A stretch of 64,000 nucleotides of DNA from Candidatus Parcubacteria bacterium (GTDB taxonomy: Bacteria; Patescibacteriota; Minisyncoccia; Phycocordibacterales; JAKAEA01). The notes under the pieces are model-generated. The model worked only from the letters and a program-made list of their open reading frames with translations, ran no database searches and had not been told where the DNA came from. This document shows, in pieces, positions 3,848 to 63,497 of this stretch (positions are counted from its first letter, which is position 1; each line of letters begins with the position of its first letter). Position numbers and translations under genes: made by a program. The stretch is taken from assembly GCA_963806325.1 (NCBI GenBank), contig CAWDXL010000016.1, positions 4,043 to 68,042 on the forward strand. Reading direction: 5' to 3'.

Positions 3848-5804
3848 GTGTCGATGAAATATCTTGAAGGCTTGAACGCCGCCCAACGAGAAGCAGTGCT
3901 GACACGCGAAGGACCGCTGCTTATTTTAGCGGGCGCCGGATCAGGAAAAACTAAAACAGTCACCTACAGAATTCTCCATCTCATCAAGGAAGGAGTGTCA
4001 CCGAAAAACATTCTTGCTATTACATTCACCAACAAAGCAGCAAAAGAGATGAGGGAACGAATCGAGAAGCTTATCGCTGAAAATGCCATTCTCAATCTAC
4101 CCACCTCATTTTCTGAGAAGCCGTTCATGAGTACGTTTCACTCTCTCGGCGTCCACATCATCAAAGAAAACGCCAAGCTTCTCAATCTGCCGCGGCATTT
4201 TGGTATTTTTGATAAATCAGATTCCAAAAGAGCCATAAAAGAAGCCTTGGAACAAGCAGGGCTCGATCCGAAACAATTTGATCCCGGGAAAATAATGAAT
4301 GCCATCTCGCGCGCCAAGGGAAATCTTGAAACGGTTGAGTCGTACAGCGCGAAAGCCGGCAATCAATATCTTCCGAGAATTGTAGCGGACATCTGGAAAA
4401 AATATGAAGATCTTCTTCAAAAAGAAAAGGCTCTTGATTTTGACGACCTTCTGTCAAAAACAGTATTCATTCTTCGCAATCATAAAGAGGTGCTCGAGCA
4501 TTATCAAAACATTTGGACATATATTCATATTGATGAGTATCAGGATACCAATATGGTCCAGTACACAATTGCAAAACTTTTGGCACAAAAAAACAGAAAT
4601 ATCTGCGTCGTGGGCGACATTGATCAAATGATTTATTCATGGCGTGGTGCAAATATTGAAAATATCCTGAATTTTGAGGAAGATTATCCGGATGCAAAGG
4701 TCACAATTCTGGAGGAAAACTACCGATCAACACAAACAATTCTTACCGCCGCAAATAGGGTGATTCAAAAAAATAAGAACCGACGTGAAAAGAATCTTTT
4801 CACAAAAAATGATCCTGGCGAGCCGATTGGCATTTTTGGCGGCTATGATGAGGCAGAAGAAGCTGATTTTATTGCCGAACGCTCGAAAGAACTCATCCGA
4901 TCAGGCGTTCCAGCCAAAGAAATAGCCGTTTTATACCGCGCTAATTTTCAATCTCGGGTCCTTGAGGAGGCATTTTTGGCGCATGACGTCCAGTATCAGG
5001 TGCTTGGTACTAAATTTTTTGAGCGAAAAGAGGTTAAAGACATATTATCCTACCTTCGAGCCGCTCTTAATCCAGAAAGTCTGACCGATATAAAGAGAGT
5101 GATAAACGTGCCGGCGCGCGGCATCGGCAAGGTAACGCTTCTTAAGGTGCTTTCAAATCAGACGGACACGCTGCCTGCTGCAACAAGAGCAAAAATAAAC
5201 GAATTTTAATGCATTGCTTACCGAGATAGCCAAAAAAGCAATGGAAGAAAAACCAAGCGAAACCTTAAAATTTATCGTTAAAGCATCCGGCATTGAAGAT
5301 TTTTTCAAAACAAGCGGCACAGAGGATGATCTTGAACGGCTTGAGAATACAAAAGAGCTTGTCACCCTTGCCACAAAATACGACGGACTTACGGCAGAAG
5401 AGGGAATCGAAAGTTTGCTTGCCGATGCCGCACTCGCATCAGACCAAGATAGCATGATTAAAGAACAGGAAGCAGTAAAGCTCCTGACGGTGCACGCGTC
5501 TAAAGGTCTTGAATTTGATTATGTATTTATTACTGGTCTTGAGGAGAATCTTTTTCCTCACACACGCATGAATGAAGACAAGAACGATAAAGATACCGAG
5601 GAGGAGCGGCGGCTTTTTTATGTCGCACTGACGCGAGCTCGAAAAAAATTATTCCTGACATATGCCGGCACGCGAACAATTTTCGGATCAAAACAGATGA
5701 ATATTCCTTCTGAATTTATTGTTGAGATGGATGATGATATTATCAAGGCCGAAACACGCACCGGATCGAGAAGGACGGGAATTAAGACGGTTTATTTTGA
5801 TTAA
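3848..5804 (+). CDS. pcrA: UvrD/PcrA-type superfamily 1 DNA helicase, reading frame broken once
   Basis: ORFs 3848..5209 and 5214..5804 are contiguous helicase parts: Walker A AGAGSGKT, DEYQDT, YRS..TIL, and the C-terminal VHASKGLEFDYVFI and RRLFYVALTRARKKL. The frames join at the T-run 5204-5207 (..KINEF / NALLTEIAKK..). Confidence 0.9.
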
Positions 5805-14558: not shown

Positions 14559-17056
14559 GTGATACACTACACTACAATGGCTTCTCAATCAGACAGGGCA
14601 ACTCAGGATTTTGTACCTTTGAAAGAGGTGCGTAACGGCTATGCAATCTTAAAGGACGACTCGATGCGTGCGATCGTGATGGCTTCATCAATCAACTTCG
14701 CTTTGAAATCAGAGGAGGAACAGAATGCCATTCTGTTCCAATTCCAGGATCTTCTCAACTCCATTGATTTTACCGTCCAAATCTTCGTCCAATCGCGCAA
14801 GCTTGATATACGGCCGTATATGGCGCTTCTTGATGATCGCATCAAAAAGCAGATGAATGACCTTATGAAGATTCAGACTCAGGAATATATCGGCTTCATA
14901 AAAAATTTCACCGAGACAACAAATATTATGACGAAAACATTTTTTATCGTCATTCCATATTCACCGGCCGTGCTTCAAAAAGGCAATCCGTTCAAAAATC
15001 TCTTTGCTCACCGGTCGACTGAGGAAGTAAAAAAAGATAATCAGGAACTTTTCGAAGAAAATCGGGCTCAAATTGAAGAACGTGTCTCGGTCATAGAGCA
15101 GGGATTGATGCGCTGCGGCGTGCGCGTGGCCGAGCTTGGCACTGAAGAAATCATCGAGCTTTTTTATAAAATATTCAATCCGGGAGAAACCGAAAAACCA
15201 ATTAAACTTACATAAAATAATATGGCACTTTTTGGACTCATAAAAGATACAAAGGAAGACCCGAAGCTCAGCACTATTTTGCCGCAGCAAGTATCGGCGG
15301 CAGCCGCTCTTGAGCTTAAAGATATTATCGCCCCATCGGCGCTAAAAGTTTCACCGCGTTCGCTCAATTTAGGCGATAAAATTGTCAGAACATTCTTTGT
15401 CATTTCATATCCGCGTTTCCTTTCCGAAAACTGGTTTGCACCAATTATCAACCTCGATCGCATTTTCGATATTTCTATTTTTATTCACCCCATCGAGACA
15501 GCTACCATTTTAAGACATTTCCAAAAGAAGGTCGCTGAGGTTCAAAGCCAAATAAATATTAGGGAAGAGAAGGGGCTGGTGCGCGATCCCGTCCTTGATA
15601 CCGCCTATCAAGACCTTGAACAATTGCGCGATAGTCTCCAGCAGGCTCAAGAAAAACTCTTTGATGTCGGCTTATATATGTCCATTTACGGAGAAACTGA
15701 CGCTGAACTAGATAAAATAGAGTCAGAAATAAAATCTATCCTTGAAGCGAAGATGGTGTATGTCAAACCTGCCCTTTTCCAGCAAATGGAAGGTTTTCGA
15801 AGTATTCTGCCGCTCGGAAATGATGAAATAGTAGTCAACTCAAAGATAAACTCTACGCCGCTTTCAAGCATTTTCCCGTTTGTCTCTTTTGATCTTACTT
15901 CTGATAAAGGAATTTTGTACGGCATCAACAGACACAATTCATCATTAGTATTGTTCGATAGATTTACTCTTGAAAACTATAACTCTATTACATTCGCAAA
16001 ATCCGGTTCAGGAAAATCATACACAACCAAGCTCGAAATCTTGAGAACGCTCATGTTTGACACCGACGTCATCGTTATCGACCCTGAGCGTGAGTATGAA
16101 TATCTTGCCGAAGCGACTGGCGGCCGGTATTTTAATATTTCCCTCAACTCCGAGCACCATATCAACCCATTCGACCTGCCTCCAGTAGGGGAAGATGAGT
16201 CGCCGGCCCAAGTATTACGCTCAAATATTATCAACCTTGTTGGCCTTTTCCGCCTCATGATGGGAGGCCTCACACCTGAAGAAGATGCAGTGATAGATCG
16301 TGCCATCAGCGAGACATACGCTCTTAAAGACATCACTCCCGATTCAAATTTTACCGACGTTGAACCGCCGCTTCTCTCCGATTTTGAACTCGTGCTCGCC
16401 GGCATGGAAGGAGGGGAGTCGCTCGCTCAGCGATTGACCAAATACACCCGCGGCACCTGGGCTGGCTTCATCAACCGACCTACCAACGTTGATATGAATA
16501 AAAAGTTCATCGTCTTTTCCGTGCGCGATATGGAAGACGAGCTCAAGCCGATTGCTATGTATATTGTCATGCACTATATATGGAACACGATTCGCAAAAC
16601 AATCAAAAAAGATTGCTCGTCATCGACGAGGCATGGTGGATGATGAAATCTGATGATACGGCTTCATTTCTTCTTTCTTTAGCAAAACGAGGCCGCAAAT
16701 ATTATCTTGGACTCGCCACAATCACTCAAGATGTGGATGATTTTATGAAATCGAGCTACGGCTTACCGATTATTACCAACTCTTCCATTCAAATCCTTCT
16801 CAAACAATCACCAACATCAATAGACAAGCTTCAGCAAACATTCAATCTCACTGACGAAGAAAAATATCTCCTTCTTGAGTCAGGGGTAGGGGAAGGAATC
16901 TTCTTTGCCGGGGTAAAGCATGTTGCCATTAAAATCATTGCTTCATACACCGAAGACCAAATCATTACCTCCGACCCATCGCAGATATTATCTATCAAAA
17001 AAGCCAAGGATGATTTGAAAAATGGAGCAGGAGTTGCTGGCACTGAAAAGAAATAG
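14559..17056 (+). CDS. virB4: VirB4/TraE/PrgJ-type T4SS ATPase, split into three ORFs (one in-frame TAA, one frameshift)
   Basis: 14559..15215 holds the N-terminal VirB4 region (TQDFVPLKEVRNGYAILKDDSMRAIVMASSINFALKSEEEQ). 15222..16643 is in the same frame after the TAA at 15213-15215 (APSALKVSPRSLNLGDKIVRTFFVISYPRFL, Walker A KSGSGKSYT). 16580..17056 has Walker B LLVIDEAWWMM in another frame, joined at the A-run 16605-16610. The combined length of about 830 aa equals a full VirB4. Confidence 0.8.
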
Positions 17057-26954: not shown

Positions 26955-29505
26955 CTACTGTGTTACTTCAAAATTTACTGTCGAGCTCGCAGTATTTTGG
27001 TACTGGTCGTACGCGATGACTTTGAGGGTGTTTGAACCTGTTTGAATGCTTGGCACATCGCTTGGCACGAATGAAAATGTATAAGGAGCGGTATTGCTGC
27101 TGCCCACCAAACTATCATTTACATAATAATCAGCGCGGGCAATCGGGTATGTGCTGTTGTACTGCAGCATTACAAGCACCTTAGCAGAAGAAGGGAAGAT
27201 GGGATCCTTCTGTCGGCTGAGTAATATTGAGAACGGAAATTGAATTTGGATTATTGACAGTATCAACTTGTGTCGGCTCGGTGTAATTTAAAAGAGAACT
27301 GCTTCCATTCGCTGCAACCCATGCCTCCACACCAGGCTCCCACAAGCTGTATTGAGGATCACTAGCAGGGTTGGTTGGTGCTGGTCCTGTTGGGTCATCC
27401 TTATTAACCCAATAAAGAATCGAATGAACATTTGGAATGGCTTTTTCAACACGTAAATTTGCCGGTGTCTGATCGGTAGCAAGCAGGCCTGTAGATGAAT
27501 CAATAGTGTACGTTTGATTACCCTGCCAAATGCCGCGAAGTACCGGTTTTAAATTTGGATCAGTTGGTGCAGGCTTCAAAAAAGTGACTGGAGGATAATC
27601 TGCCAGAGCTACATCCATAAACGCGCGCCACATTGGGGCGACGATAAGGCCGGACGTTGAATGGGTCATTGGGGTATCGTCATTATTGCCAGCCCATGCA
27701 CCAACAACGATTTGCGGTGTATATCCAATTGTCCACACATCGCGGTAGTTGTTGGTTGTACCAGTTTTTAAAGCGACATCACGGTCAGGAAAATCAGTAG
27801 ATGAACCAGGGCCGTTGAGAGGGAGGCGGGCAGTGTTGTCGCTTAATACATCATTGATAAGGAGGGCGCTTTGCGTAGGCAATACTTGCTGAGGATTTGC
27901 AGTGTATTGTTCTAGCACATTGTCGTTTGCATCGGTTACGCTCAGGATGCCTGTGTATGGATTGCGGATGCCGTTGTCAGCAAATACTCCATAGGCACTT
28001 GTCATTTCGAGCGGTGATACTTCTCCTCCTCCGAGTACCAGTGTTAATCCGTACTGATTTGCGTCTCCAAGGCTCGTAATACCCATATCTTGAGCCGTAG
28101 TAATACTATTTTGTATGCCAGCAAGATAGAGTACTTTGATTGACGGAACGTTGCGTGACTGAGCCAATGCATCACGGAAGCTAATAGGTCCTACAAATTT
28201 ATTATCATAATTTTGAGGCGTGTAGCAATCTGCTCCTGGAGAAAGAGGGTTGCCGTAGGCGTCGCACGCGGTTGAAAATTGAGTAGGAACATCAAATACG
28301 ACAGTATCCGGCGTGTAGCCCTCATTGAAAGCGGTGGCATATACAAATGGTTTGAATGCCGAGCCTGGCTGACGGTGGGCAAGCGTTACGTTGAAATTGC
28401 CGTCAATTGTTGTATCAAAATAATCGCGCGAACCGACCATGACAAGAATCTGTCCTGTTGTCGGATCAATTGCGGTCATTGCTGCATTTGAAGCATTGAA
28501 CTTTTTCTGGTTTGAGAGCGCATACTGCTTTACGATTGCTTCGGCTTTTGCCTGCAATGTATAGTCAAGAGTTGTGATAACTTTCAAATTGCCATTTTTA
28601 ACCATATCATCGCCGTATTTTGCTTCGAGATAATTTTCAATAAACATTACAAAGTGCGGAGCTTTAATACTGTTGTCCTGCTGCTGTAAAAATGTAACTT
28701 TTTCAGCTTTGGCGCTATCGTACTGTGCCTGAGTGATAAAATTATTGCTTAGCATTTTCTCAAGTACAAGATTTTTACGGTCATCGAGAGCGGATCGGTT
28801 GTTGCCGAACGGAGAGTAGTAGCTTGGCGCCTGGGGGAGAGCGGCGAGGTACGCAGATTGTGCGATATCGAGATTTTTTGATGAAGTACCAAAAAAATTT
28901 TCACTTGCTTCTTCCACACCATAATAATTTCCGCCATATGATGTGCCGTTGAGATAGAGGTTTAAAATCTGGTCTTTTGTCATGACCTGCTCGAGTTTCA
29001 TCGACAACACCCATTCTTTTATTTTTCGTGAAATAGTCTTATCAGTCGTCAAAAGCGAATTTTTAACAACTTGTTGAGTGATAGTTGAGCCGCCTTGGGT
29101 GAAGTGAAGAGTAATAATGTCTGCCAAAAGCGCGCGTATTATTGAGGTGACTTCGATACCACTGTGCTGGTAGAATTTCTCATCCTCGATAGCGATGGTG
29201 GCATTTTTCATGTTTTGAGAGATGTCGTCGTAAGGCACCACCTGCTGTCGGACGTTTTGACCAAGATCATACAGGAGAATTGTGCCGGTTCTGTCGTATA
29301 TTTTTGTCGATCCGGCGAGAAATCTGTCTTGAATTGAATTTACATCAGGCAATTTTAGGGTTGTGATCCAGATTGCAAGGAAACCAGCGAGGATAAAGAC
29401 AGCAATAATGGCAACCATAATAACCCGTTTCCAGAAATGGACTTTTAAATATTGGCGAGTCCGAAACCAGTGCCTGATTTTTGCCTTCATAGTGGGTGTT
29501 TGCAC
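26955..29505 (-). CDS. Class A penicillin-binding protein (PBP1A-type transglycosylase/transpeptidase) with a C-terminal Ig-like extension, reading frame broken once
   Basis: N-terminal TM. Glycosyltransferase motifs IAIEDEKFYQHSGI and GGSTITQQ. Transpeptidase motifs SAFKPF (SxxK), SRN and KTGTT. ORF 26955..27266 (..YYVNDSLVGSSNTAPYTFSFVPSD..) continues the protein in another frame, with the junction near 27205-27215. Confidence 0.85.
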
Positions 29506-32192: not shown

Positions 32193-33237
32193 TTATAAAA
32201 ACCTCTCCTGCCTTTCCGGAATCTTCAACCCCAAATGCGAGTACCCTTTATCGGTCACGGCTCGGCCGCGGGATGTGCGCTCGAGCATGCCACACTGGAT
32301 GAGGTATGGCTCATTAAATTCTTCAATAGTGGCCTGCTCTTCCGAGAGGGAAGCAGCGATGGTATTGAGGCCGACCGGTCCGCCTTTATATTTTGTGATG
32401 ATAGTTTCAAGAATTGAGCGATCAGCCTGAGTTAATCCTTCCGAATCAATACCTAAAAGTGTGAGTGCTTTGCTTACGGATTCTTTTGTCAGCGATGTTT
32501 TGTGTACCTGTGCGTAGTCGCGGCAGCGTTTTAAAAAGTAATTTGCGGTGCGGGGTGTGGAGCGGCTGCGCATGGCGATTTCCTCCGCTGCACTTTGTTC
32601 GATGGTAATACTTAAAATTTTTGCCGAGCGCTTAATAATTTCTTCTATTTCTTCTTTTGTATAAAACTCAAGTTTGAAAACACCGCCGGAGAAGCGTGAA
32701 CGAAGCGGGGAAGAGATCATGGCAATGCGCGTGGTGGCGGCGATGAGCGTGAATGGCGGCAGATCGAGCTGAATGGTGCGTGCCGACGGACCTTTGCCGA
32801 TAATGATATCGAGCTTGCCAGATTCCATGGCCGGATACAGCACCTCCTCAATAGCTTTATTCAAACGATGAATTTCATCGATAAAAAGAATATCTCCAGG
32901 TGAAAGGTTGGTAAGAACGGAGGCAAGATCTCCCACTTTCTCAATAGCTGGGCCGGAAGTGACTTTTATCTGCGCATTCATCTCTTTGGCAATGAGGTGG
33001 GCGGAGAGAGTTGTTATTCCCTAAGCCTGGCGGCCCGTAAAAAAGGATGTGTTCAGGTACGGTTTTTCGCTCCTCCGCGGCGGTGAGGAGAATATGAAGG
33101 TTATCTTTTATGATTTTTTGGCCGATATAATCGTCCCAGCGGCTCGGCCGGAGTGCTGTATCGAGAAAAATTTCTTCTTCCGCAGGCGGAACCTGAGGTT
33201 CAAAACCTTGATTTTGAACGGGAGAAGGGGTTGACAT
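32193..33237 (-). CDS. ruvB: Holliday junction branch-migration ATPase RuvB, reading frame broken once
   Basis: 32941..33237 ends ..ILFYGPPGLG. 32193..32981 continues with ..MNAQIKVTSGPAIEK, DILFIDEIHRL, and the arginine finger/winged helix. Deleting the base at 33016 restores GPPGLGKTTLSAHLIAKEMNA. Confidence 0.9.
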
Positions 33238-41272: not shown

Positions 41273-41344
41273 TGCTCCCAGCAGGAATCGAACCTGCATC
41301 ACGAGCTTCGGAGGCCCGTACTCGATCCATTAAGCTATGAGAGC
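41273..41344 (-). tRNA. tRNA-Arg (anticodon CCG)
   Basis: Manual cloverleaf: GCTCTCA TA GCTT AATGGATC GAGT A CGGGC CTCCGAA GCTCG TGAT GCAGG TTCGATT CCTGC TGGGAGC A. 72 nt; CCA is not encoded. Confidence 0.85.
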
Positions 41345-48364: not shown

Positions 48365-49300
48365 TTAATTTTTTCCTCCAAATTTTTTAAAGAGTCTTTG
48401 TACAAGACTACCCCTTGATTTTTGACTGATCTCTTTCATGCGCTGTACTATATATTCAATAGCATATTCCTGCTCCCTTTTCATTTTTTTGAGTCGGGGC
48501 AACGCAGAAGTGAGTGATGGATCTTTTGTTGCCGTTTCCACCATCGTTTCAAGTTCATGAAGAGCTGTACGGCGGGTGTCTATATTCTGCTGAAGCTCAG
48601 TAATCGATGTCGAGGCAGGCAGCCATTCTTTAAGCTTATCAGCAGACGATAAGCCTGTCTCAAAAGTGAGATATGTCTTAAGGAGCGGGGAAGGAGGATT
48701 GCTTTCTTGTCTGCCAAATTGCGGACTAGTCACGTCCGGCTGATCTCGGTGTCGCTGTTCCCTCTGTTCTGTAAAATATCCTCTTGCGTCTCTTTGCTCG
48801 TAGATTGGCTCCATAGCCTTTCGCTGGCGCTTGAGGCGGGCATTTTCGGCATCCTGTTTTTCATCAATATTTGTAACACTTTTCACCCACTGATTTACCT
48901 GATCGATAAATGGCTGTTCGCGTTCGCTTTTTGCACGATCATATGTCGCTATTGCTGCATCAACTTCTCTTTGTTGTTCGGGAGTCTGTGCAATTCTATA
49001 CTTTCCAGGGTTCTCTTCGCGGCTTTTCTTGATTTGTCCTTGAGCCATATCAACTGCCTCTTGCGACGCTCGCTCGATGATCTTATCGAGCTCCTCAACT
49101 CTTTGTTTTAATACTCTGGCTTCTTTATATTTTCCTGCTTTGGTGAGGCTGCCAATTTCATTGTAGAGTTCGTGCTGTTCTTTAATTGTATCGAGTACTG
49201 TATTAGCTTCTGCGACCATAGCATCACCCTCATCGACGTTTTCTGTAGCTAATTCTTGCGAAGATTTTTCCTGTTCAGGTTCAAATGTAAGAGTTTCCAT
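48365..49300 (-). CDS. Charged coiled-coil hypothetical protein
   Basis: 311 aa, rich in Glu/Lys/Arg/Gln, with no TM helix. No motif recognised. Confidence 0.5.
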   Translation of the reverse strand: METLTFEPEQEKSSQELATENVDEGDAMVAEANTVLDTIKEQHELYNEIGSLTKAGKYKEARVLKQRVEELDKIIERASQEAVDMAQGQIKKSREENPGKYRIAQTPEQQREVDAAIATYDRAKSEREQPFIDQVNQWVKSVTNIDEKQDAENARLKRQRKAMEPIYEQRDARGYFTEQREQRHRDQPDVTSPQFGRQESNPPSPLLKTYLTFETGLSSADKLKEWLPASTSITELQQNIDTRRTALHELETMVETATKDPSLTSALPRLKKMKREQEYAIEYIVQRMKEISQKSRGSLVQRLFKKFGGKN

Positions 49301-49396
49301 ATAATAAATGTTATTTTAATTTGCTCACAGTATTTTAGGTTTAAAAATGGCGGATGTAAATGGGTCCTGTATCAGAAATTGAGAGCTGATCTAAAT

Positions 49397-49435
49397 AAAA
49401 AAAGAAGACATCGGCTTTCTGGGCTCGATGTCTTC
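49397..49435 (-). terminator. Rho-independent terminator (minus strand), second of a tandem pair
   Basis: GAAGACATCG (49404-49413) pairs with CGATGTCTTC (49426-49435). On the minus strand a run of 7 U follows (A-run 49397-49403). Confidence 0.65.
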
Positions 49436-49506
49436 CGGAGGGGAGAAAATGCATCACGACTGTTCTGCCTGTAATGCTACAGCTTTCAATATTTAAATGC
49501 AAGCAA

Positions 49507-49537
49507 TGAAAAGCCGCCCTGATTTCTCGGGCGGCTT
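49507..49537 (-). terminator. Rho-independent terminator (minus strand) after the 49563..50009 gene
   Basis: AAGCCGCCC (49511-49519) pairs with GGGCGGCTT (49529-49537). On the minus strand TTTTC follows. Confidence 0.6.
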
Positions 49538-49562
49538 GAGGATACATTTGCTGCTGGCAAAA

Positions 49563-50009
49563 CTATTCTCCCGCCACAAGCTCATTGAAGGGGGTGAGGT
49601 CATTTTCACCATCGAATACTACACCCTTGAAATCGATGATGACGGTGAAAATTAGTCTATAGTTGCCCTGGATACTCCGTTTGAACTTTTTAAGATGCGA
49701 CTCGAGGTCGCTCATCAACGAGGTTGCCTCGGTGCGGTCGAATTCGTCGAAGGTTGAGAGTTCCCCGCTGACCTTAAAAAGTCCCCGCTTCATGTCAATC
49801 GTGATTGCACCACGACAACCGATGTGGCTAAAAGTTTTCAGAAAAGCTTCGGTGAGATAGATGAATTTGTAATATTCGATTCCCATGTGAGAACAAATAC
49901 TAAACATTTCTTCATTCTCTCTGCGTACCCCAACAACGCATTCCGGTCGGGAAGAATTGTTGTAATATCGCCCAGACAGACGCACGGTAGTGAAATTGAT
50001 GCCCAGCAT
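49563..50009 (-). CDS. 148-aa hypothetical protein, last gene of the putative Zur-controlled operon
   Basis: ORF only, 105 nt downstream of the HAD-like domain on the same strand, and followed by two terminators. No motif recognised. Confidence 0.45.
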   Translation of the reverse strand: MLGINFTTVRLSGRYYNNSSRPECVVGVRRENEEMFSICSHMGIEYYKFIYLTEAFLKTFSHIGCRGAITIDMKRGLFKVSGELSTFDEFDRTEATSLMSDLESHLKKFKRSIQGNYRLIFTVIIDFKGVVFDGENDLTPFNELVAGE

Positions 50010-50114
50010 ATAGGACCCTTCTTGTGTGTGATGGAACCTTTACTGCTCTCAACTATATCATTTTTAAAATAAAAGTCAATATATCTTGTGAGCTGTTAAA
50101 CATTTTGAGGCAGT

Positions 50115-51934
50115 TTAATTCTTTATTACCTGCCTATTTAGTTCTGAAACAACTGACAAAATTGTAGAATATTGTAGACATACACAATATTTTGATTCAT
50201 CTTCCGTAAAATTATGACTGCCATCAAGAAACGGGTTGAGAGAGAATTCGAATTTTGATGGGATAACCGTGCAAAAAGCAAGATTCTTGCCTTCTTCATT
50301 GTTTATAGCTTTGCAAAACTCAACATCGGTTGGTAGATCACCAAAATACGCTATCTTTTCTCCTTGTGGGACAAATTTTCTCAGAGTGTGTAATTTAGGC
50401 TTTCCACCGAGAATAGGGTCGGCACCGGTAATATATTGGCGAGGAATTAGATGTTCGCCAATAAAATTAAATCTTTCTAGAAGTTCAATCAGAGAATCCT
50501 CTGATCGGTTACTGATAATTCCAAAACGTTTATTCGTATTTCTACACAGGATATTTAACTGCTCGATTAAATCTTTCGCATAGGAAAGCGGATGAATTTC
50601 CTGATCAAATTTGCAGAAAAAATACCCAAATATATTTCAAAAACCATACGGGATGTTATACCACTAGTAATATAAGTTTCTCCTGAGAGGTTTGGCTGAT
50701 GTGACAACCATGCTTTGATGTTAGCTTCAAAAAGCTTCATGCATTCCATTGCACGGTGGGGATTATGGTCATAGTATTTATTATTTGAGAAAAATTCTTT
50801 TATCTTCTTAAGAATACTTTCAGCATCTATTTGTTTGTCATACAAAAATACGCCATACGTACGTGAACTCACCCTCAAAATATCGAATTCACTAATAAAG
50901 CTGTCTTCTCCTTCCTCGAGAAGTTCCTTTTCTAAAAGTTTCATTGACTGGGATGCTACCCAGGGAACTCGCTCGTATACCGCCGGATTTTCACGATAAA
51001 ATCTCTGCAGGTTTTCAAGAATTGGAACAACTATACCGCTTTCTTTGCGCACAAGATTTGTCCGGCCGCGACTAACAGAGTTTTCAATATTCGGATCTGC
51101 TGGATATATGGCAAGAACGGGATTTTTCCGCTTAAAGCCGCCTTTAGTTAATTTGAAACCAAGACAATTTGCATCGGCGGCAGTAGTCTCTGATTCGTAC
51201 ATAGTTTTTGTTTTCTCAAAGAATGCTCTGGCCATGAGGAAATCATTCTCTTTTTCTGAAGAATGCTCATTGGAAAATGTCTCGAATCGTTTTTTAGCTT
51301 TTCTAATAATTTCTTCTGAAAGATACGCGGTGTATTTTTCATGTGTTTTAAAATACGTAAATTGATGTAACATATCCCGTCTGTCTTTGAAAATATAGGT
51401 ATGCCAATCAATAAAAGAAACATGGGAGCACCTGTGTTTTTTGAGTAGCCGAGTCACATTTGCCATGTACAGATCAATCACTGAGTGGTCAATAACCTGA
51501 CTTAAGGTAAATACATCGCCATCAGAAAGAACAGTAAATTGCACTCCATATGGGTACAGTGTCTCTATTTTCTGTGCAATACGATCAAGATTTCTAACCA
51601 GAATTTCTTCTCCAAGGTCAACCGCCTGATCCAAACTGTCGGTCTTGATTGGCAGATCAAACAAATAGAAAGAAAGAGGTAGTTTTTTTGCGAATCGGCT
51701 CCGTGCAGAATGTATAAATTTTTCTTTTAGAATATTTTGTTCCTCTCGAGTGAGATAATTTCTTCGTTTAATTCTGTTAGATTGCAAAAAATACCAGATT
51801 GCTAATACAGGAGCATATTCTTGATTTTCTTCACGAGCCGCTTTTTTTACAGCTCTAGATAGCGCCCTCTCAAGAAGTCCATCGGTATACTCAAAATATT
51901 CTTTTTTTAACTTCTCTGGATTTTCTCTTTTCAT
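50115..51934 (-). CDS. DIT1/PvcA-like (isonitrile-synthase family) protein continuing into a HAD-IA-like hydrolase domain, reading frame broken once
   Basis: 455-aa ORF 50567..51934 contains LPLSFYLFDLPIKTDSLDQAVDLGEEILVRNLDRIAQKIETLYPYGVQFTVLSDGDVFTLSQVIDHSVIDLYMANV. This matches the remembered DIT1_PvcA core (LPAFPfKS...PDlGEE...L..L...I...YpPG....i.SDG.VF.d....D..v..Y). A Met-free open frame, 50115..50636 (not in the ORF track), encodes RFGIISNRS ... GGKPKL ... IAYFGDLPTDVE (HAD motifs II-IV). The frames can be joined at the A/T-run 50617-50622. Confidence 0.5.
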
Positions 51935-51989
51935 AAAATAAAATAGGGAGTCGAGTCTTTCAACATCGACCCCCTTGTGGTTTTTGTTT

Positions 51990-53558
51990 CTATAACGTTT
52001 CAGCCCACTCGCTTTCGTTATAGTCGGAGCGATGATCCCTGAAGAGCTGGTGTGCTCGCCGAAAGATGTCTAGAGCTTTCTTGTGTCCAAGCCCATGCTC
52101 CATGCCATATCGCAAGACGCGGTACACAGACTCGACCTTGAGATTTTCGGCGATCTCTGCTGGTTTGTGTGCCTCCATCCATTCCCAGCCGAGGAGTGTC
52201 AGTTCGGTAGTTGGGAGTGAATTGATCTCCTGTCGGATTTCCGCACTCATTAGGTCGTTCACCCAGTCGATCTGAAGGGTATTAATGAGCGCCTTGCCGA
52301 GGACGAAACAAGCACGATAGAAGGCGTAGTCGTCGGGCCAGACTTTGGTTTCCCACTGTCTGACGAGGTGACGGAATCCTGCAATTCGCCACTGTACGCT
52401 TTTTCGGTATGCGCGCTCATGAACTTCATGGGGGACACCGGGGCGACGCGCCAAATGCTTGGCCGGATCGGCATCGCAGTTGGTGAGGACGCGCCCATCC
52501 CGAGTAATCGGATTTGGGTATTGCGCCAACAGATAGTCGATCGCTTCGATGGTTTTCTCCACAGGCAAATTGCTGTCCGTGAATACGTCCATCTGCTCGA
52601 CCGCTTTTCTGTTGTTGTCGCAATATTTACACATGAATTTCAATAAGGGTCCCAAATCCTCCGAAGAGGAAATGAAGTTGCCTCCTGGGGTGCCGTCGGT
52701 TCTGGCTCCCCAGATAATGGAACCTTGGACAAAATCCCAGATGCGCAACCCTTCGTGCTCAATACCAATTATCTTGCAAATACCCTTGGCACGGACGAGT
52801 CCATGCTTTTGGTAGAGATTTACGAGGACCGGCACAAGTATCGTTTCATCAATACCTTCAGCAAATTCCACGCTCGTCGCGTGGATCGGCACATGATGAT
52901 GGTGATCATGGGTATAAGAATGCTTGTGGTCGGCGTGGCTATCATGGTCATGGGTGTGGCCACAAGTCTTGCAAACCTTATCACCACCTCCGTCTTCCAA
53001 AAGACTCTCCAGCCGCGGCATCTCATCTTCTAGGAGAATCTGAATTGGGGCTCCGGAAAAGCGTCCGATATACTCGAGCACTGGCGCAAGTTTGGAATCC
53101 GAGAGGCTGCTTACCCCTTCGGCCCACGTGAGCCCGATCCTTGTTGCCGCTGGGAGCTGGAACTGCTCCACTCCAATTGTCCGGTTGAGTTCAAAATGCT
53201 GGACGTCGATCAGGCACAGGCAGTGCCAGTCGAAACCAAGCTTTTTGGCCATGCTGCGGATCGTTGTGGCGTCAGCGATGCCGGTTGGCTCAATGATGAC
53301 GAAGCCAATCCCGGTCCTTTCGGCTACTTCTTCGAGCGTGCGCTTGAGCACTCCCGCTGACTCGCAACAGACACACCCCGTAGTAAGGGGAAGCACTTCT
53401 CCCACCGAACTGACGCGCGATGCGTCTATGTTGGTTGTCCCCACATCGTTTACGATGCAGAGAGCAGTAATATGCCTTGTGGCGACCTGATTTAGGATTT
53501 GGTTGAGACGCGTGGTTTTGCCTGAGCCAAGTGGCCCTGAAATCACCAAAATGCGCAT
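51990..53558 (-). CDS. COG0523/CobW-family G3E GTPase (putative zinc metallochaperone) with a ~220-aa uncharacterised C-terminal extension
   Basis: Start chosen at MRILVISGPLGSGKTT (AAGGAGAA Shine-Dalgarno upstream). CxCC motif TGCVCCES, and a His-rich linker HTHDHDSHADHKHSYTHDHHHHVP. The CobW_C-like segment is followed by about 220 further residues with no recognised motif. Confidence 0.75.
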   Translation of the reverse strand: MRILVISGPLGSGKTTRLNQILNQVATRHITALCIVNDVGTTNIDASRVSSVGEVLPLTTGCVCCESAGVLKRTLEEVAERTGIGFVIIEPTGIADATTIRSMAKKLGFDWHCLCLIDVQHFELNRTIGVEQFQLPAATRIGLTWAEGVSSLSDSKLAPVLEYIGRFSGAPIQILLEDEMPRLESLLEDGGGDKVCKTCGHTHDHDSHADHKHSYTHDHHHHVPIHATSVEFAEGIDETILVPVLVNLYQKHGLVRAKGICKIIGIEHEGLRIWDFVQGSIIWGARTDGTPGGNFISSSEDLGPLLKFMCKYCDNNRKAVEQMDVFTDSNLPVEKTIEAIDYLLAQYPNPITRDGRVLTNCDADPAKHLARRPGVPHEVHERAYRKSVQWRIAGFRHLVRQWETKVWPDDYAFYRACFVLGKALINTLQIDWVNDLMSAEIRQEINSLPTTELTLLGWEWMEAHKPAEIAENLKVESVYRVLRYGMEHGLGHKKALDIFRRAHQLFRDHRSDYNESEWAETL

Positions 53559-53598
53559 AGCATTCTCCTTCTTGCTGATCGTCTTTGCTTGAATGTAC

Positions 53599-53665
53599 AT
53601 GCAACTAAGTTGCATTCCTGGGGGATACTATACACCACCATATTCATAATTGCAAATTACTTGCA
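53599..53665. promoter_or_regulatory. Two TGCAA-N5-TTGCA palindromes in the divergent promoter region (candidate Fur/Zur-family operators)
   Basis: ATGCAACTAAGTTGCAT (53599-53615, a perfect 8-1-8 palindrome) and TGCAAATTACTTGCA (53651-53665). Both lie between the COG0523 start (53558) and the Fur-family start (53685). Confidence 0.55.
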
Positions 53666-53684
53666 CATGTGATAATTTAAAGAT

Positions 53685-54101
53685 ATGAAATTAGACTACC
53701 GAAAGATGCTTAAAGAAGCCGCATTGAAGGTGACTCCTGTCCGTCTCGCTATCCTCAATTTGTTTTCAGAAGAGTGCAGGCCGCTGGATGCAGAATTCAT
53801 CCATTCAAAGTTAAGGAATAAAAATACTAATCTCGTGACGGTGTACCGGACCTTGACTTCACTTGAACAGGCTGGAGTCTTGAAACGCGTTGATTTGCAC
53901 ACAGACTCAGTTCACTATGAATTGACTGCTCATCATCACCATCATATTGTCTGCATACAATGTGGTGACATAGAAAGTTTTGAAATGTGCGACCTCGATG
54001 CATTCTCAAAAAGTATTCTCAAAAAATCTTCTAAGTTTAAACAAATAAACAACCATTCTTTTGAATTGTTTGGCATTTGCAAAATGTGCGTAAAAAAATA
54101 A
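53685..54101 (+). CDS. Fur-family metalloregulator (Zur-like by context)
   Basis: LKVTPVRLAILNLF (DNA-binding helix region), VYRTLTSLEQAGVL, HHHHHIVCIQCG and CKMC (CxxC pairs). 138 aa. Confidence 0.8.
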   Translation: MKLDYRKMLKEAALKVTPVRLAILNLFSEECRPLDAEFIHSKLRNKNTNLVTVYRTLTSLEQAGVLKRVDLHTDSVHYELTAHHHHHIVCIQCGDIESFEMCDLDAFSKSILKKSSKFKQINNHSFELFGICKMCVKK

Positions 54102-54131
54102 GATGGCATCTTCAATAAAGTTCCATCTCTG

Positions 54132-54181
54132 TTTGGGTCAACTTAAAAGACGGCTCTAAGTAACACTTCTAAAATCTGTCC
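54132..54181. repeat. Imperfect direct repeat R1, copy a
   Basis: TTTGGGTCAACTTAAAAGACGGCTCTAAGTAACACTTCTAAAATCTGTCC matches 56636-56685 at 41 of 50 positions with no gaps (hand alignment). Confidence 0.7.
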
Positions 54182-54350
54182 CCCGACTATGAGATTATTA
54201 TAACTATCCTAGAGGATAGGGAATATATGAATGGGTTGGGAGTGAAAATGATGCAAATTAAGGAAATGAGCAATTCTTAGTTTTCAGTTTTTTAGTGTGT
54301 ATATGTGGTAAAAAACTAAAAACTGTAAAATAATTTCATGTCTGTTATAC

Positions 54351-56676
54351 TTGAGTCATATGAAAAACTCCCGAAAAGGATTTATCATCCCTCTCCTAAT
54401 AATTGCAATTACACTGCTTGCCATCGGTGTCGGGGTATATGAGTACCACAAGGGCAAGACTTCAGCTCCAACACCGACTCAAACAACTACTATAGCAACC
54501 GCTCCTGTCTCTAACCAAAAAGACATCCTCGCCATCCTCGTATCTTTTCAGGATTCTAAACCAAACGCTAGTTCCGATACATACGCTAGCGTAAAAGCTA
54601 AGCTTGATGCAGTCAGTGCTTTCTATATAGAAAATGATTTAACCGGAGCATTCAAAGGCTTTACGTATGATATAACCCCCGGCTATGTTTCTACAGATTT
54701 CCATCAAGGCACTACCATTAACGTTAAACTTTTTAACGCAGCGGTTCAAGATGTTGAAAAACAGGCACAAAAAAAATATGGGTTCAACCCCTTGAACTAC
54801 AAATATATATATTTTATTACCCCGAAAGAGGTAAATTGTGGAGGTATCCTGGGATACTGTGTACCATCTACTCCGTTGGGATTTGATGATACTGGCACCT
54901 ATAGTAATCAAGCACTCCATGCCATATTTATCAATGGCCCCCAACCTACTTTGGTATATGCTCATGAATTAGGTCATGCACTTCCACAAGGTCTTCACCA
55001 TTTCGGAAGTTTAACGTGCGGCAAGAAAGATATTGACATTCTAAAGAATTGTTCCGGAACTAATTACAGTTACACCGTGATGGGTAATTTAGGGCTGACG
55101 CACCTCAGTGCTTATCAAAAAGAACGTATGGGGTACATCATTCCTGCTATGGAGCAAACAGTACTCAAAGATGGTATATACACTCTCACTCCCATTGAAA
55201 CACGAGCCGAAGGGTTAAAAGATTTGGCGGTTCAGTCTCCATCTGGAGGTTTGTATTATGTAGAGTATCGAACGCTATCTGGATTTGATACTGATTTCGA
55301 TCAACAAACATGGATAACTGAACCATATACAGGACTTGCCTTTGATGCGAATGGGAAAGCTACAAAAAATGATTCTGCGAATGCTCCCGAAGCACTTTTC
55401 TTAAAAAATCTCATCGATAATGGGGATATATTTACCGACGACCTTGACCCGATTGATATTTTAAAGATAACTGAAATGGCAAGTAATCCTACCACTGATA
55501 CCGTGAGTGTCACATTCAACAAAATGACTATCTCCGCCACCACTACCAATCAGGAAGCAAATCCTGTGCCCAAAGTCAGCGTTGTCCTTACCGATACTTC
55601 ATCAAAGCCATCTGTTACGTATACTGGCACCACAGACTCCAATGGCAATGTCCTTTTCAAAGATCTTGCCATGCTTAAATTCAAGGATACCTTCACCCTC
55701 AAGGCTTTGACTCCAGACTCGACAAAATACAAAGATTCTGACCCTGTTATTGTCACTACCAATGAGGATACTGATGACTATTCAGCTACTCTGAAGCTTA
55801 AAAGATGTGGCGAGCAGCACGCCTCCAACATTTAGTTTGAGCGGAGATGTGTTTAATAATTCAGTTGGCGTTTCAACATGGGATCCTAATTGCATCCCCA
55901 ACACGCCATATTCTGCAATTCTTTCAGGTAAGAATATTCCAAGCGGTAATTATACCTACGCAATAACACTCTATGGTACAGCTCTTGATAATTACAATGA
56001 TAGCAATGATGTTCCCTTTGCTCCATCCTCCTTTAAAAATATACAGCTAGCAACCGCAAACACTAATTCAATGCCGTTCAATACAACAATAACGGTTAAA
56101 AGTATAGTCGCACCCAGAGATTTTGAATACGACATGTTTTCTAATGGGGTTGAGGAGTATGATAATCCATTTGCTGTCATAGACGCATTTATAGATGGCA
56201 AGGATACCGGTCATTTATCGCACTATCAACTTATATATGAAAATGCCTATGGAGTTATTGCGGTGTATGCCAAAATTGTCATGAAAGATTCAAAAGGAAA
56301 CATTATAGGTACCTTCTATACATCTAACCATAATATTGACACGAGCAATACACAATCCAATAAAGAGGCTACTTATATACCTACTCTTTATCCTGCAGAC
56401 GCCAAAATATGCGGCACTGCATTTGCTCCAACGCCCTTCGGTCCTGCTAACACTGATGGTTATGGATCAATCGATGCCACTACGATTTATTATGATTTAA
56501 ATCAGGCTCCCGGTGTTCTCCTCAAAACAACTCAGCAAACATGGTGTGCTGAGTACAGTGCTTTAATGGGAGGAATAAAAGGGGATTGGGTGTTAATTAA
56601 AAATAAACGTCATTTCTGTAAATGCTCGATTCCTGTTGGGGTCAATCCAAAACACGACTCTAGGCAACACTTCTGA
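54351..56676 (+). CDS. Secreted HExxH zinc-metalloprotease-like protein, probably one ~770-aa gene broken by one frameshift
   Basis: 54351..55835 has an N-terminal TM, VYAHELGHAL (HExxH), and a C-terminal carboxypeptidase-regulatory-like beta domain (VSVVLTD..TGTTDSNGNVLFKDL). 55807..56676 opens right after a TGA in the +1 frame. Removing one A from the run 55800-55803 reads ..ATLKLKDVASSTPPTFSLSG... Confidence 0.6.
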
Positions 56677-59220: not shown

Positions 59221-60183
59221 CTATATTTGTTGGTTCCAGCAGCCAGAATTATTATTACTGCAGAGGTGTGACATGTAACTACTCGAGAAATTGCTGAGAG
59301 TATTGCTTGGCATGCTATTCTCTTGCAGAAATGAGGCAATGATATTGAAGGCGGTGATGGCACTCTGCATATCTCCGTTAGCATTATTATAGTGATATTC
59401 ACCGCTATTACCCTCAGTGCTATCATACCCGCTCTGATATTCAGAGGCTGCATTGTTAAAATTAGATGATGCAGTTATGAGGCTTTGAGTAATATTTTGA
59501 TACGCAGCGCCTTTATAATTGTACTCATTGGCTAGATTCGAAGCATCTGTATTTGCGGGAATCAAATCAAGGGCAGCAGCGCTATTATCGATAAAAGGGT
59601 CTGGAAATTTTTGAGTAAGACTTTCTCGAGCTTGTTCCATTTGGTCATAACCATCCATTATCTTGAAATAGATATTTTTTACCGCACTCTCAAAGGCAGC
59701 ATCATTAATTGGTGCCAGTACTGTTACAGAGGAGGTTGGAGTAGCAGTTCCAGGCCCAGAGTGACATGGTGCACCCGTAATCGTGTTATACATGTCTCCA
59801 GGCGAGGCACAAGGGGTAGAAGTAGTGGTTGTTTGTGTTGCGGGTATAGTGGTATCCATTGCACTAGTGGAACTTTGTATTGTTGAAGATGAAGTACTTG
59901 TGCCAAGATGCATATTGATATAAGCACGGGTAATTGCACCGAAGTATCCGGATGCAGGTGCAATGCCAGCAATGGTTTGATATACAGCTACGGCAGTTTG
60001 TGTTAATGCACCAAAATATCCTGTTGGTTGAGCATTAAGAAGACCTTTTGAGATTAAATATTGTTGAAGTTGTGTTACTTCCGGCCCAGAGCTTCCTGTA
60101 GAGAGATTTGTATTAAAATCCGCAAGAGTTACAAACGGAATAAATGCTACTACGGCTACTAGGAGAATAGCTAATTTTTTCAT
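59221..60183 (-). CDS. Secreted protein with tandem PG_binding_1-like segments
   Basis: Start chosen at MKKLAILLVAVVAFIPFVTLA (60183). Contains GPEVTQLQQYLISKGLLNAQPTGYFGALTQTAVAVYQTIAGI and a second GYFGAITRAYI. No catalytic motif recognised. Confidence 0.6.
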   Translation of the reverse strand: MKKLAILLVAVVAFIPFVTLADFNTNLSTGSSGPEVTQLQQYLISKGLLNAQPTGYFGALTQTAVAVYQTIAGIAPASGYFGAITRAYINMHLGTSTSSSTIQSSTSAMDTTIPATQTTTTSTPCASPGDMYNTITGAPCHSGPGTATPTSSVTVLAPINDAAFESAVKNIYFKIMDGYDQMEQARESLTQKFPDPFIDNSAAALDLIPANTDASNLANEYNYKGAAYQNITQSLITASSNFNNAASEYQSGYDSTEGNSGEYHYNNANGDMQSAITAFNIIASFLQENSMPSNTLSNFSSSYMSHLCSNNNSGCWNQQI

Positions 60184-60417
60184 GGAAATTATTTTTTCTA
60201 ATAATCCCAGTGATGGAGTACAAAAAGCCCACCACATGAGTAGAGGCCGAAGCCTCTCATACCAGTTTCCTAGTATGGCCAAGCAGGACACCCCATATGA
60301 TGGGTTTTTTATCCTGCTTGGACTCTTTTCACCATGCCAGCAATTGCTTACTGGTTTAGGCTACTTACTTATTAAATTGTCATTTGACTATACAACAGAA
60401 AGAGTATAATCACAACC

Positions 60418-61873: not shown

Positions 61874-63463
61874 ATGGAAATAAAACCTAAATCAATCATA
61901 TATGCCCGTGTCTCTTCACGGGAACAGGAATCCGGATACTCACTAGATTCTCAGAAAAAATTATTGAATGAGTATGCTGAGACTCATCGCCTTAAGGTTG
62001 TCAAAGTGTTTTCCGTGTCTGAATCTGCAAATGGGAAAAAGCAACGAGAAACATTTACTGAAATGATGAGTTTTGCTGTTAAAAATGATATTAAACATAT
62101 CCTTTGTGAAAAAACAGACCGTCTTACCCGCAACTTTAAAGATGCGGTATCTGTTGATGAGTGGGTTAACTCTAACGGGGAAAGGAGAGTGCATTTCGTG
62201 AAAGAGAATATGATTCTGCACCGAGATGCAAAATCTAATGAGAAGTTTATATGGAGTATAAAAGTTTCTGTCGCGCAGTACTATATAAATAACTTATCTG
62301 AAGAGGTAAAAAAGGGTTTACTTGGAAAATTGGAAGCCGGTTATCTACCGTATCAACCAAAGTTTGGGTATAAGAGTGCTAAACAAGATGGTAAAAATAT
62401 CCATGTTATAGATGAAAATGAAGCCGTGTTTATTGTGCGCATATTTGATATGTATTCGACGGGCAATTATTCTATCAATATTCTTAGGAAGAAATTGTTT
62501 GATGAAGGGATGAGAACTCGTCACGGCAAGAACATGTCTATAAGTAGAATAGCGGCTATTCTTGGTGACCCTTTCTACTATGGAGCATTACCCTGGAAGG
62601 GTGGAATACATGAACAACCAGGTAAGCATACTCCACTGGTATCACGTGAGCTGTATGACAAGGTTCAACTTATTTTAAGTGGTAAGGGTGCACCTAAACA
62701 TAGCAAACATACCTTTCCTTTTAGAAAGCTTTTGTTGTGCGCGAATTGTGGCGGCACCATGACTGGTGAATTACAGAAAGGGAATATTTATTACAGATGC
62801 AAGGGTTACGGTGGTTGTATGGTAAAAAGCTCAATCCGAGAGGATGATATTGAAAAGCAGATATTGGCCTCCTTTGAAATTTTTAGGAAGCTGTCTGATA
62901 AGGAGAGGGAAGAAGTAAGACAAGCCGTCCTTGACCTGCATAAAGAAGATTCTCAGTTTCGTGAAAAGTCATTAGCGAAGCTAACAACCGAACGTCAGAC
63001 TCTTGAGAGTCAGCGTGATACTCTCTATGAAGATAGGTTAGCTCAGCGTATTTCTATTGAAAAATGGCAAGTTAAAGATATGGATTATGAGTTTCGTATC
63101 AAGCAAGTAGAAGCTGCTATTGCTAAGCAGAGTGATGAGCAGACCAAATATTTTAAAGTTGGCTCAAGTCTTGTTGATTTAGCATTTAAAGCCGAGAAAC
63201 TTTATAAAGCATTGAATCCCGAGAAGCGCCGAGAATTGCTCAAGCTAATTTTCGCGAACCTCAAAGTTAACGGTAAAAAAGTCATATTTAGCTTCGTAAA
63301 ACCAGTAGAGAAACTGGTTGAGCGTATTAAGGAACGATTACAGCTAGAATTCATTTCCGAACTCAAGAAAGATGTTGCAGTACCTACGCTAAATCAATTT
63401 CCAGAACTCTTTTATTCTATAGTGTCCGCCCAGCAGGAATCGAACCTGCGACCATCTCCTTAA
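61874..63463 (+). mobile_element. Large serine recombinase (integrase) gene
   Basis: Resolvase-type N-terminus IIYARVSSREQESGYSLDSQ (nucleophile Ser) ... EKTDRLTRN, then a recombinase domain. A zinc ribbon CANCGG..YYRCKGYGGC is followed by a long coiled coil. The last 39 nt of the ORF overlap the 3' end of tRNA-Lys on the opposite strand. Confidence 0.85.
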
Positions 63464-63497
63464 AAGGGAGCTGCTCTACCATCTGAGCTATGGGCGG
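63425..63497 (-). tRNA. tRNA-Lys (anticodon UUU)
   Basis: Manual cloverleaf: CCGCCCA TA GCTC AGATGGTA GAGC A GCTCC CTTTTAA GGAGA TGGTC GCAGG TTCGATT CCTGC TGGGCGG A. 73 nt. The C1-G72 pair and a G-A mismatch at the top of the anticodon stem are slightly unusual. Confidence 0.8.

Follow-up and report, generated by a model that had tools for sequence, protein, structure and literature searches.

A HAD-type phosphatase gene, probably truncated by a deletion, behind a PvcA-like gene in a Candidatus Parcubacteria contig

In the standard mechanism of HAD enzymes, the Asp of motif I forms an aspartyl-phosphate intermediate. The nearest known kin of the HAD-like proteins described here are found in HAD subfamily IA, the members with a C1 cap (phosphoglycolate phosphatase-like enzymes, beta-phosphoglucomutase, pyrimidine 5'-nucleotidase III; PF13419). 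A second relevant family is DIT1_PvcA (PF05141), with PvcA/IsnA and yeast Dit1; the isonitrile synthases PvcA and IsnA use ribulose-5-phosphate. Sequences related to both families lie next to each other in a 64,000-nucleotide stretch of the Candidatus Parcubacteria contig CAWDXL010000016.1, the whole of which is called the window here. A PvcA-like open reading frame (ORF) is followed there, in another frame, by a stretch that carries HAD motifs. The first-pass annotation of this DNA had left two options, namely a PvcA-like/HAD fusion protein with a re-purposed HAD domain or a decayed phosphatase gene. Comparison with relatives supports the latter. The HAD frame is very probably the tail of a phosphatase-type gene truncated by a deletion of ca. 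200 nt, and thus a case of ordinary gene damage and not a re-purposed enzyme.

The HAD-like frame and its intact relatives

The elements of the locus, in the order in which they are read, are as follows.

51017..51934, minus strand: PvcA-like part, residues 1-306 of the 455-amino-acid ORF, without the last ~8 codons and the stop (PF05141, 51 bits; the alignment ends at ..KESGIVVP)
51016..51017, minus strand: deletion junction between GIVVP and ILENLQRFY, ~200 nt absent (protein and DNA alignments to the related loci L001, L002 and L005)
50618..51016, minus strand: remnant of a HAD-like cap, ORF residues 307-439, in frame with the PvcA-like part and holding NLSGETYITS (aligns to residues 61-196 of the relatives P0003/P0004, 56-60% identity)
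50617..50622, minus strand: T6 run with the frame break, one base short of the Phe-Phe codons of the relatives (GGTATTTTTTCTGCAAA vs GGTATTTTCTTTTGTAAA)
50567..50617, minus strand: out-of-frame end of the 455-amino-acid ORF, SANLIRKFIRFPMRKI plus stop, non-homologous and without a counterpart in any relative
50115..50636, minus strand: remnant of the HAD core in the -1 frame, with ISNRS, GGKPK and GDLPTD; homologous part 50139..50617, no usable start (61-64% identity to residues 189-356 of P0003/P0004)

The frame without Met that the first-pass annotation had described is present as claimed. It consists of 173 sense codons on the minus strand (50636..50118) followed by a stop at 50115-50117, and encodes FGIISNRS (motif II), GGKPKL (motif III) and YFGDLPTDVE (motif IV). 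The chance of 173 open codons is ~3e-4, as computed from the stop-codon frequency of the whole window. Separate translation of this frame was considered and rejected, since it has no ATG or GTG and its lone TTG is codon 159. The Pfam HAD_2 profile scores 22.9 bits on the fragment, against a cut-off of 23.8, and the match (profile positions 76-172 of 178) covers only the C-terminal half of a HAD domain. The upstream ORF (50567..51934, minus strand) matches DIT1_PvcA with 51 bits at residues 101-222. The run at 50617-50622 reads A6 on the plus strand and T6 on the coding strand; one T added to it gives a 606-amino-acid product reading ..EIYLGIFFCKFDQEIHP.., in which GIFFCKFD is restored. The proposed one-base fusion of the frames is correct, and the relatives read GIFFCKFD uninterrupted. 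That the two frames join is more than chance, because the relatives align on both sides of the break and read through it in one frame.

A search of 5.8 billion protein clusters with the fused product returned seven proteins: the window's own 455-amino-acid ORF (P0001), five proteins of 356-359 amino acids (P0002-P0006) with 59-61% identity to the second half of the query, and a PvcA-like protein of 334 amino acids (P0007) with 42% identity to the first half. The PvcA-like half as query brought up ten more homologues, which reach 334 amino acids at most and include no fusion. For the HAD-like family, eight members turned up when 1.84 billion representatives were searched with a profile. Apart from the window's own, no PvcA-HAD fusion occurred in either collection. 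Intact HAD-like relatives measure 347-361 amino acids and stand-alone PvcA-like homologues (42-51% identity) 302-334 amino acids. The identity of the relatives to the window is 56-61% before the frame break and 62-65% after it. When contigs were scanned with the HAD alignment, metagenomes gave no confirmed locus and genomes a single one (L011, an uncultured Candidatus Saccharibacteria metagenome-assembled genome). One sequence from outside the window, P0013 (246 amino acids), has a HAD-like match to profile positions 182-355 only, placed behind an unrelated N-terminus of 73 residues; it could reflect either another truncation, independent of the one in the window, or an error in gene calling.

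In the Saccharibacteria-type contigs L001, L002/L003, L005-L010 and L011, genes for a cobW-like GTPase, a PvcA-like protein and a HAD-like protein follow one another in this order; the row is conserved, though extremely rare. The last two genes of the relatives are separate and either overlap by 4 nt (ATGA) or have 1-4 nt between them. Orthologues had been named beforehand as the comparison that could speak against a fusion, and in L001, L002, L005-L010 and L011 every one of them shows two genes, a stop codon between these and an intact DxDG. A fusion with a re-purposed HAD domain is thus not supported.

The relatives also show where motif I belongs. Their 356-amino-acid proteins begin with ..NIFLDNDGFLFDNT.., a textbook HAD motif I, which is followed by a long helical insert and then by ..ETYLGIFFCKFD.. 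without a break. Near the N-terminus of the HAD protein the motif reads IFLDNDGFLFDN, YTDCDGMVF or YVDCDGTIF, and DxDG stands at residues ~20-27 in every full-length member (FLDNDGF, YTDCDGM, YVDCDGT). The motifs ISNRS, GGKPK and YFGDLPTD are invariant in the family alignment, the window included. In the first-pass annotation NLSGETYITS had been taken for a degenerate motif I, with Asn and Ser in place of the two catalytic Asp residues. It aligns with NLPSLSNEKYIVGG of the relatives, ~150 residues downstream of the true motif I, and this segment is a low-confidence cap loop (residues 169-182) in the model of P0003. As the relatives have the homologous loop and in addition a genuine DxDG ~150 residues upstream, NLSGETYITS was rejected as motif I: it is a conserved loop of the cap domain, and the apparent degeneration came from searching in the wrong place of a damaged gene copy.

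Alignment to the relatives locates the missing part. The window follows the PvcA-like protein of L001/L002 up to ..KESGIVVP and re-enters the alignment at residue 60 of the HAD protein (ILENLQRFY vs ALDNLKRFY); at the DNA level ~200 nt are missing. What is gone is the end of the PvcA-like gene (~8 codons and the stop) together with codons 1-59 of the HAD gene, including beta1 and motif I. With P0003/P0004 as queries, tblastn against the window matched residues 61-196 in the frame of the ORF (51019..50618) and residues 189-356 in the other frame (50642..50139), and residues 1-60 gave no match anywhere in the 64 kb. Motif I, hhhhDxDx(T/V), is absent from the window, orthologue residues 1-59/60 (IFLDNDGFLFDN) having no counterpart in any frame. 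The independent Logan contig L004, a second assembly, equals the window over 49200-54510 (5311 bp, 100% identity), including the deletion junction and the T6 run. Since L004 carries the identical junction, the deletion is not an assembler artefact. The locus has a two-gene ancestry, lacks the N-terminus of the HAD protein and is one base short in the T6 run. A decayed phosphatase gene fits these data: its first 59 codons with the DxD nucleophile motif are lost and, besides, its frame is broken.

The course of events was probably the following. In this Saccharibacteria-like lineage, cobW-like, PvcA-like and HAD-like genes stand in a conserved row beside a gene for a Fur-family regulator. A deletion of ~200 nt over the PvcA-like/HAD-like boundary would have taken away the stop and ~8 codons of the former gene along with the first 59 codons of the latter and, by happening in frame, would have created a PvcA-like::HAD(delta-N) fusion ORF. 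The T6 break would be the loss of one base in two Phe codons, either as a technical error or as a second, recent inactivating mutation.

In the AlphaFold model of P0003 (predicted local distance difference test score, pLDDT, 71.7) motif I closes strand 20-24, with the nucleophile Asp as the last residue of the strand. The part that the window lacks comprises, in this model, the N-terminal helix, strand 20-24, the first cap helix and a short strand. Because the lost codons hold the DxD nucleophile/general acid, the HAD part of the window should be unable to act as a phosphotransferase, and we infer that this copy is catalytically dead. It probably cannot fold properly either, since its central strand is gone. 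The cap insert of the HAD-like family shows a weak internal repeat, P0003 residues ~58-95 vs 128-163 (window 50618-51028, minus strand), with 39% identity over 36 residues (tblastn, E 0.003); this suggests that a helical unit was duplicated to form the large cap.

Some observations weigh against this account of the locus. The nearest intact relative is just ~60% identical, so that the immediate ancestor and the exact breakpoints are reconstructions. The HAD part of the window is stop-free for about 300 codons and keeps every residue of motifs II-IV. Between window and L001, identity is 67% for cobW, 51% for the PvcA-like part, 56% for the HAD cap and 65% for the HAD core. In Tajima relative-rate tests for relaxed selection, for which L002 served as outgroup, the unique changes numbered:

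cobW: 23 in the window, 31 in L001
PvcA-like part: 36 in the window, 23 in L001
HAD cap: 12 in the window, 5 in L001
HAD core: 15 in the window, 8 in L001

There are weak trends, and acceleration in the window is significant for no single segment, which also counts against decay. The two HAD segments pooled give 27 vs 13 unique changes when L001 is the comparison (p about 0.03); with L005 in its place the numbers are 28 vs 16 (p about 0.07). That the remnant has decayed so little would mean either that the deletion is recent or that some constraint remains.

The latter leaves a small probability that the window encodes a functional PvcA-like::HAD(delta-N) protein of 606 amino acids, in which the T6 break is an error and the HAD cap and half-core serve as a non-catalytic binding or scaffolding module. 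Such a protein would agree with the in-frame boundary deletion, with the full conservation of motifs II-IV and cap in a stop-free frame, and with the weak acceleration. An in-frame outcome is, however, expected one time in three by chance, and the deletion takes the central beta strand of the Rossmannoid core, which makes correct folding doubtful. The fusion also occurs in no relative, the window's sequence being the single one of its kind among the protein clusters and representatives searched. A single-sequence AlphaFold prediction of the fused 606-amino-acid product was uninformative (pLDDT 36.5). We regard a functional fusion as unlikely; if it existed, it would be a HAD module without nucleophile that is kept for substrate or partner binding in a pathway induced by metal starvation. 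Truncation of a phosphatase-type gene remains the preferred explanation of the HAD frame.

The frame break at the T6 run

Relatives read GGT ATT TTC TTT TGT AAA where the window has GGTATTTTTTCTGCAAA and is one base short within the two Phe codons. Programmed -1 ribosomal frameshifting or transcriptional slippage at this site would yield a HAD-containing product at a set ratio; the position of the T-rich run coincides with the frame junction, and the shift needed is indeed -1. Against this, the zero-frame codons GGT ATT TTT TCT contain no slippery heptamer of the type X XXY YYZ in ATT TTT TCT, and a run of six T is short for efficient transcriptional slippage. The 97 nt downstream of the run contain no stimulatory RNA structure, their folding being no better than that of shuffled sequences (z = +0.5). 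Furthermore, TTC TTT is in frame in the relatives, so that the shift is not conserved, and like breaks are found in unrelated genes of the window. Recoding is extremely improbable and was rejected on the in-frame relatives, the missing heptamer and the folding result.

The like breaks are numerous. In at least four other conserved genes of the window one single-base indel splits the frame, and two further places may be affected:

870-2472, plus strand: ComM/Mg-chelatase-like gene, split into 870-1859 and 1786-2472 by a single-base indel at ~1800
3848-5804, plus strand: UvrD/PcrA, split into 3848-5209 and 5214-5804 by a single-base indel at a T4 run (~5205)
32193-33237, minus strand: RuvB, split into 33237-32941 and 32981-32193 at ~33040, where a T too many interrupts the AAAA of the Walker-A GKT codons
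15222-17056, plus strand: VirB4/TraC-like gene, split into 15222-16643 and 16580-17056 at ~16605, with A6 where A7 is required
26955-29505, minus strand: PBP1 C-terminal immunoglobulin (Ig) domain, probable single-base break at ~27230
54351-56676, plus strand: possible further break at 55.8 kb

Repair of one base restores a canonical RuvB of 347 amino acids with GPPGLGKTTL and a VirB4 of 611 amino acids, the latter with 89% identity to its relatives across 99% of its length; among the best 120 matches to the repaired VirB4 none exceeded 89% identity. Exact-protein look-ups of six window ORFs found none on record. The frame breaks of the window amount to ~1 per 10-13 kb. Single-base breaks at this density in well-conserved, essential-type genes are the signature of consensus indel errors, and the contig probably carries such errors.

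A sister contig from the same sample provides a direct example. L002 belongs to the ENA assembly ERZ25039472, whose contigs are named in the style of Flye. L003 was assembled by Logan from run ERR10755936, which also yielded the window sequence (L004). Between L002 (6360-6418) and L003 (601-660), L002 shows a 1-nt deletion (GTGTAC-GAATG) that splits the cobW-like gene; L003 has an extra A and an uninterrupted cobW-like frame of 427 amino acids. L002 thus bears a real consensus error. This L002/L003 pair is the single case on which the error calibration was made.

For the T6 break we lean, on these grounds, towards a technical error, namely a homopolymer or consensus indel in a long-read-style assembly. 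Two points weigh against it. L004 agrees with the window in the T6 run, whereas Logan corrected the error of L002, so that T6 may be real in the reads; as L004 is identical to the window, the run would be a true mutation or else a homopolymer that was systematically miscalled. In addition, the long-read origin of ERR10755936 is deduced only from the Flye-style name of the L002 assembly and from the indel density. A real mutation at T6 is accordingly a possibility of some weight, if the lesser one, and it is very unlikely that the break is neither an error nor a mutation.

Taken as a mutation, T6 would combine with the ~200-nt deletion into a fully biological pseudogene, both lesions being real. 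The PvcA-like gene would now end in a cap remnant of 133 residues and a nonsense tail of 16 residues. Two independent lesions within one gene, the T6 run reproduced by L004 although Logan fixed the indel of the sister contig, and lineage-specific substitutions that are slightly in excess in the PvcA-like and HAD parts and not in cobW speak for such a state. It is disfavoured by the further single-base breaks, at least four, in highly conserved housekeeping-type genes including the VirB4 gene, where A6 in place of A7 is exactly the type of the T6 break, and by the 173 downstream codons, which are free of more stops or indels. We hold the fully biological pseudogene as a tentative second choice, and likewise treat the extended PvcA-like product as conceivable and not as probable. 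In either case the HAD frame keeps its interpretation as the tail of a truncated phosphatase-type gene. The density of breaks further means that frameshift, split-gene or recoding findings from this window are suspect pending the reads.

The conserved gene row and other features of the window

Upstream of the PvcA-like part the window contains:

51990..53615, minus strand: cobW-like (COG0523-type) GTPase, first gene of the row (Pfam cobW, 85 bits; same position in L001, L002, L005 and L011)
53599..53615, no strand assigned: 17-bp inverted repeat ATGCAACTAAGTTGCAT, with a related second copy at 53651-53665 (conserved upstream of the cobW-like gene of the relatives)
53685..54101, plus strand: Fur-family regulator, divergent from the operon (Pfam FUR, 88 bits)

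The cobW-like protein has a CxCC motif and a His-rich stretch. It passes the Pfam cobW threshold, and its matches to the ZigA/CobW metallochaperone models are weak and far below the cut-offs. Its longest-ORF start overlaps one copy of the inverted repeat; the true start is probably the internal MRILVISG. The repeat ATGCAAnnnnnTTGCAT is conserved ahead of the cobW-like gene in L001, L002, L005 and the window, and all but L002 have it twice. It is likely a metal-responsive operator on which the Fur-family regulator encoded beside it would act. L001, L002 and L005/L006 also have a Fur-family gene close to the row, often together with genes for YibE_F or ZIP membrane proteins.

Because of the CxCC motif and His-rich stretch of the cobW-like protein, the adjacent Fur-family gene and the conserved inverted repeat, the intact row is probably an operon induced by metal limitation. 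The PvcA-type enzyme and the large-cap HAD phosphatase may act together on a phosphorylated small molecule, and the organism of the window seems to have lost the phosphatase step. The row could be an uncharacterised metal-limitation response in Saccharibacteria. Among the papers searched, we found none that connects isonitrile synthases with COG0523 or Zur.

Elsewhere in the window a LOOT RNA (Rfam RF03000) was detected at 60242-60362 on the minus strand, with 85 bits (gathering score 46); an ORF with a peptidoglycan-binding domain (59221-60291) overlaps it with its 5' end, and the RNA match reaches further upstream. tRNAs are located at 41273-41344 and 63425-63497.

Comparison with known families and kinds of sequence damage

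The single-base breaks that many of the window's genes show at homopolymers, be they short or long, resemble the homopolymer indel errors known from long-read assemblies. The clean loss of the intergenic stop and of the 5' end of the downstream gene is, in turn, like gene-boundary deletions that give rise to in-frame fusion ORFs or to pseudogenes.

The PvcA-like part of the window ORF passes the gathering score of DIT1_PvcA (51 vs 26.4 bits), with a match that spans profile positions 29-152 of 273 only. Similarity to solved isonitrile synthases (9dhm/9dh4, E 4e-5) and to PvcA (3e59, E 0.002) is weak. On the NCBIfam PvcA equivalog model NF045653 the ORF scores 30.3 bits against a cut-off of 600, and because this is far under the cut-off the ORF is not a PvcA orthologue. 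Its context differs as well, consisting of a cobW-like GTPase and a Fur-family regulator and not of a PvcB-type oxygenase.

The HAD-like family barely reaches the Pfam threshold (P0003 on HAD_2, 24.4 vs 23.8 bits), and at the sequence level it has no relative of solved structure, a profile search of PDB sequences having given no meaningful match. Foldseek with the P0003 model matched HAD C1-cap phosphatases exclusively (best E 7e-4), with 2hi0, 4fe3, 2go7, 9m7l and 3qu4 among the matches. Like other HAD proteins, the intact orthologues possess the DxDG of motif I, the Ser of ISNRS (motif II), the Lys of GGKPK (motif III) and GDxxxD (motif IV). Unlike in the usual HAD proteins, the cap insert of the family is unusually large, ca. 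170 residues with an internal repeat. The window copy, unlike the C1-cap enzymes, is without motif I and beta1 and has kept motifs II-IV.

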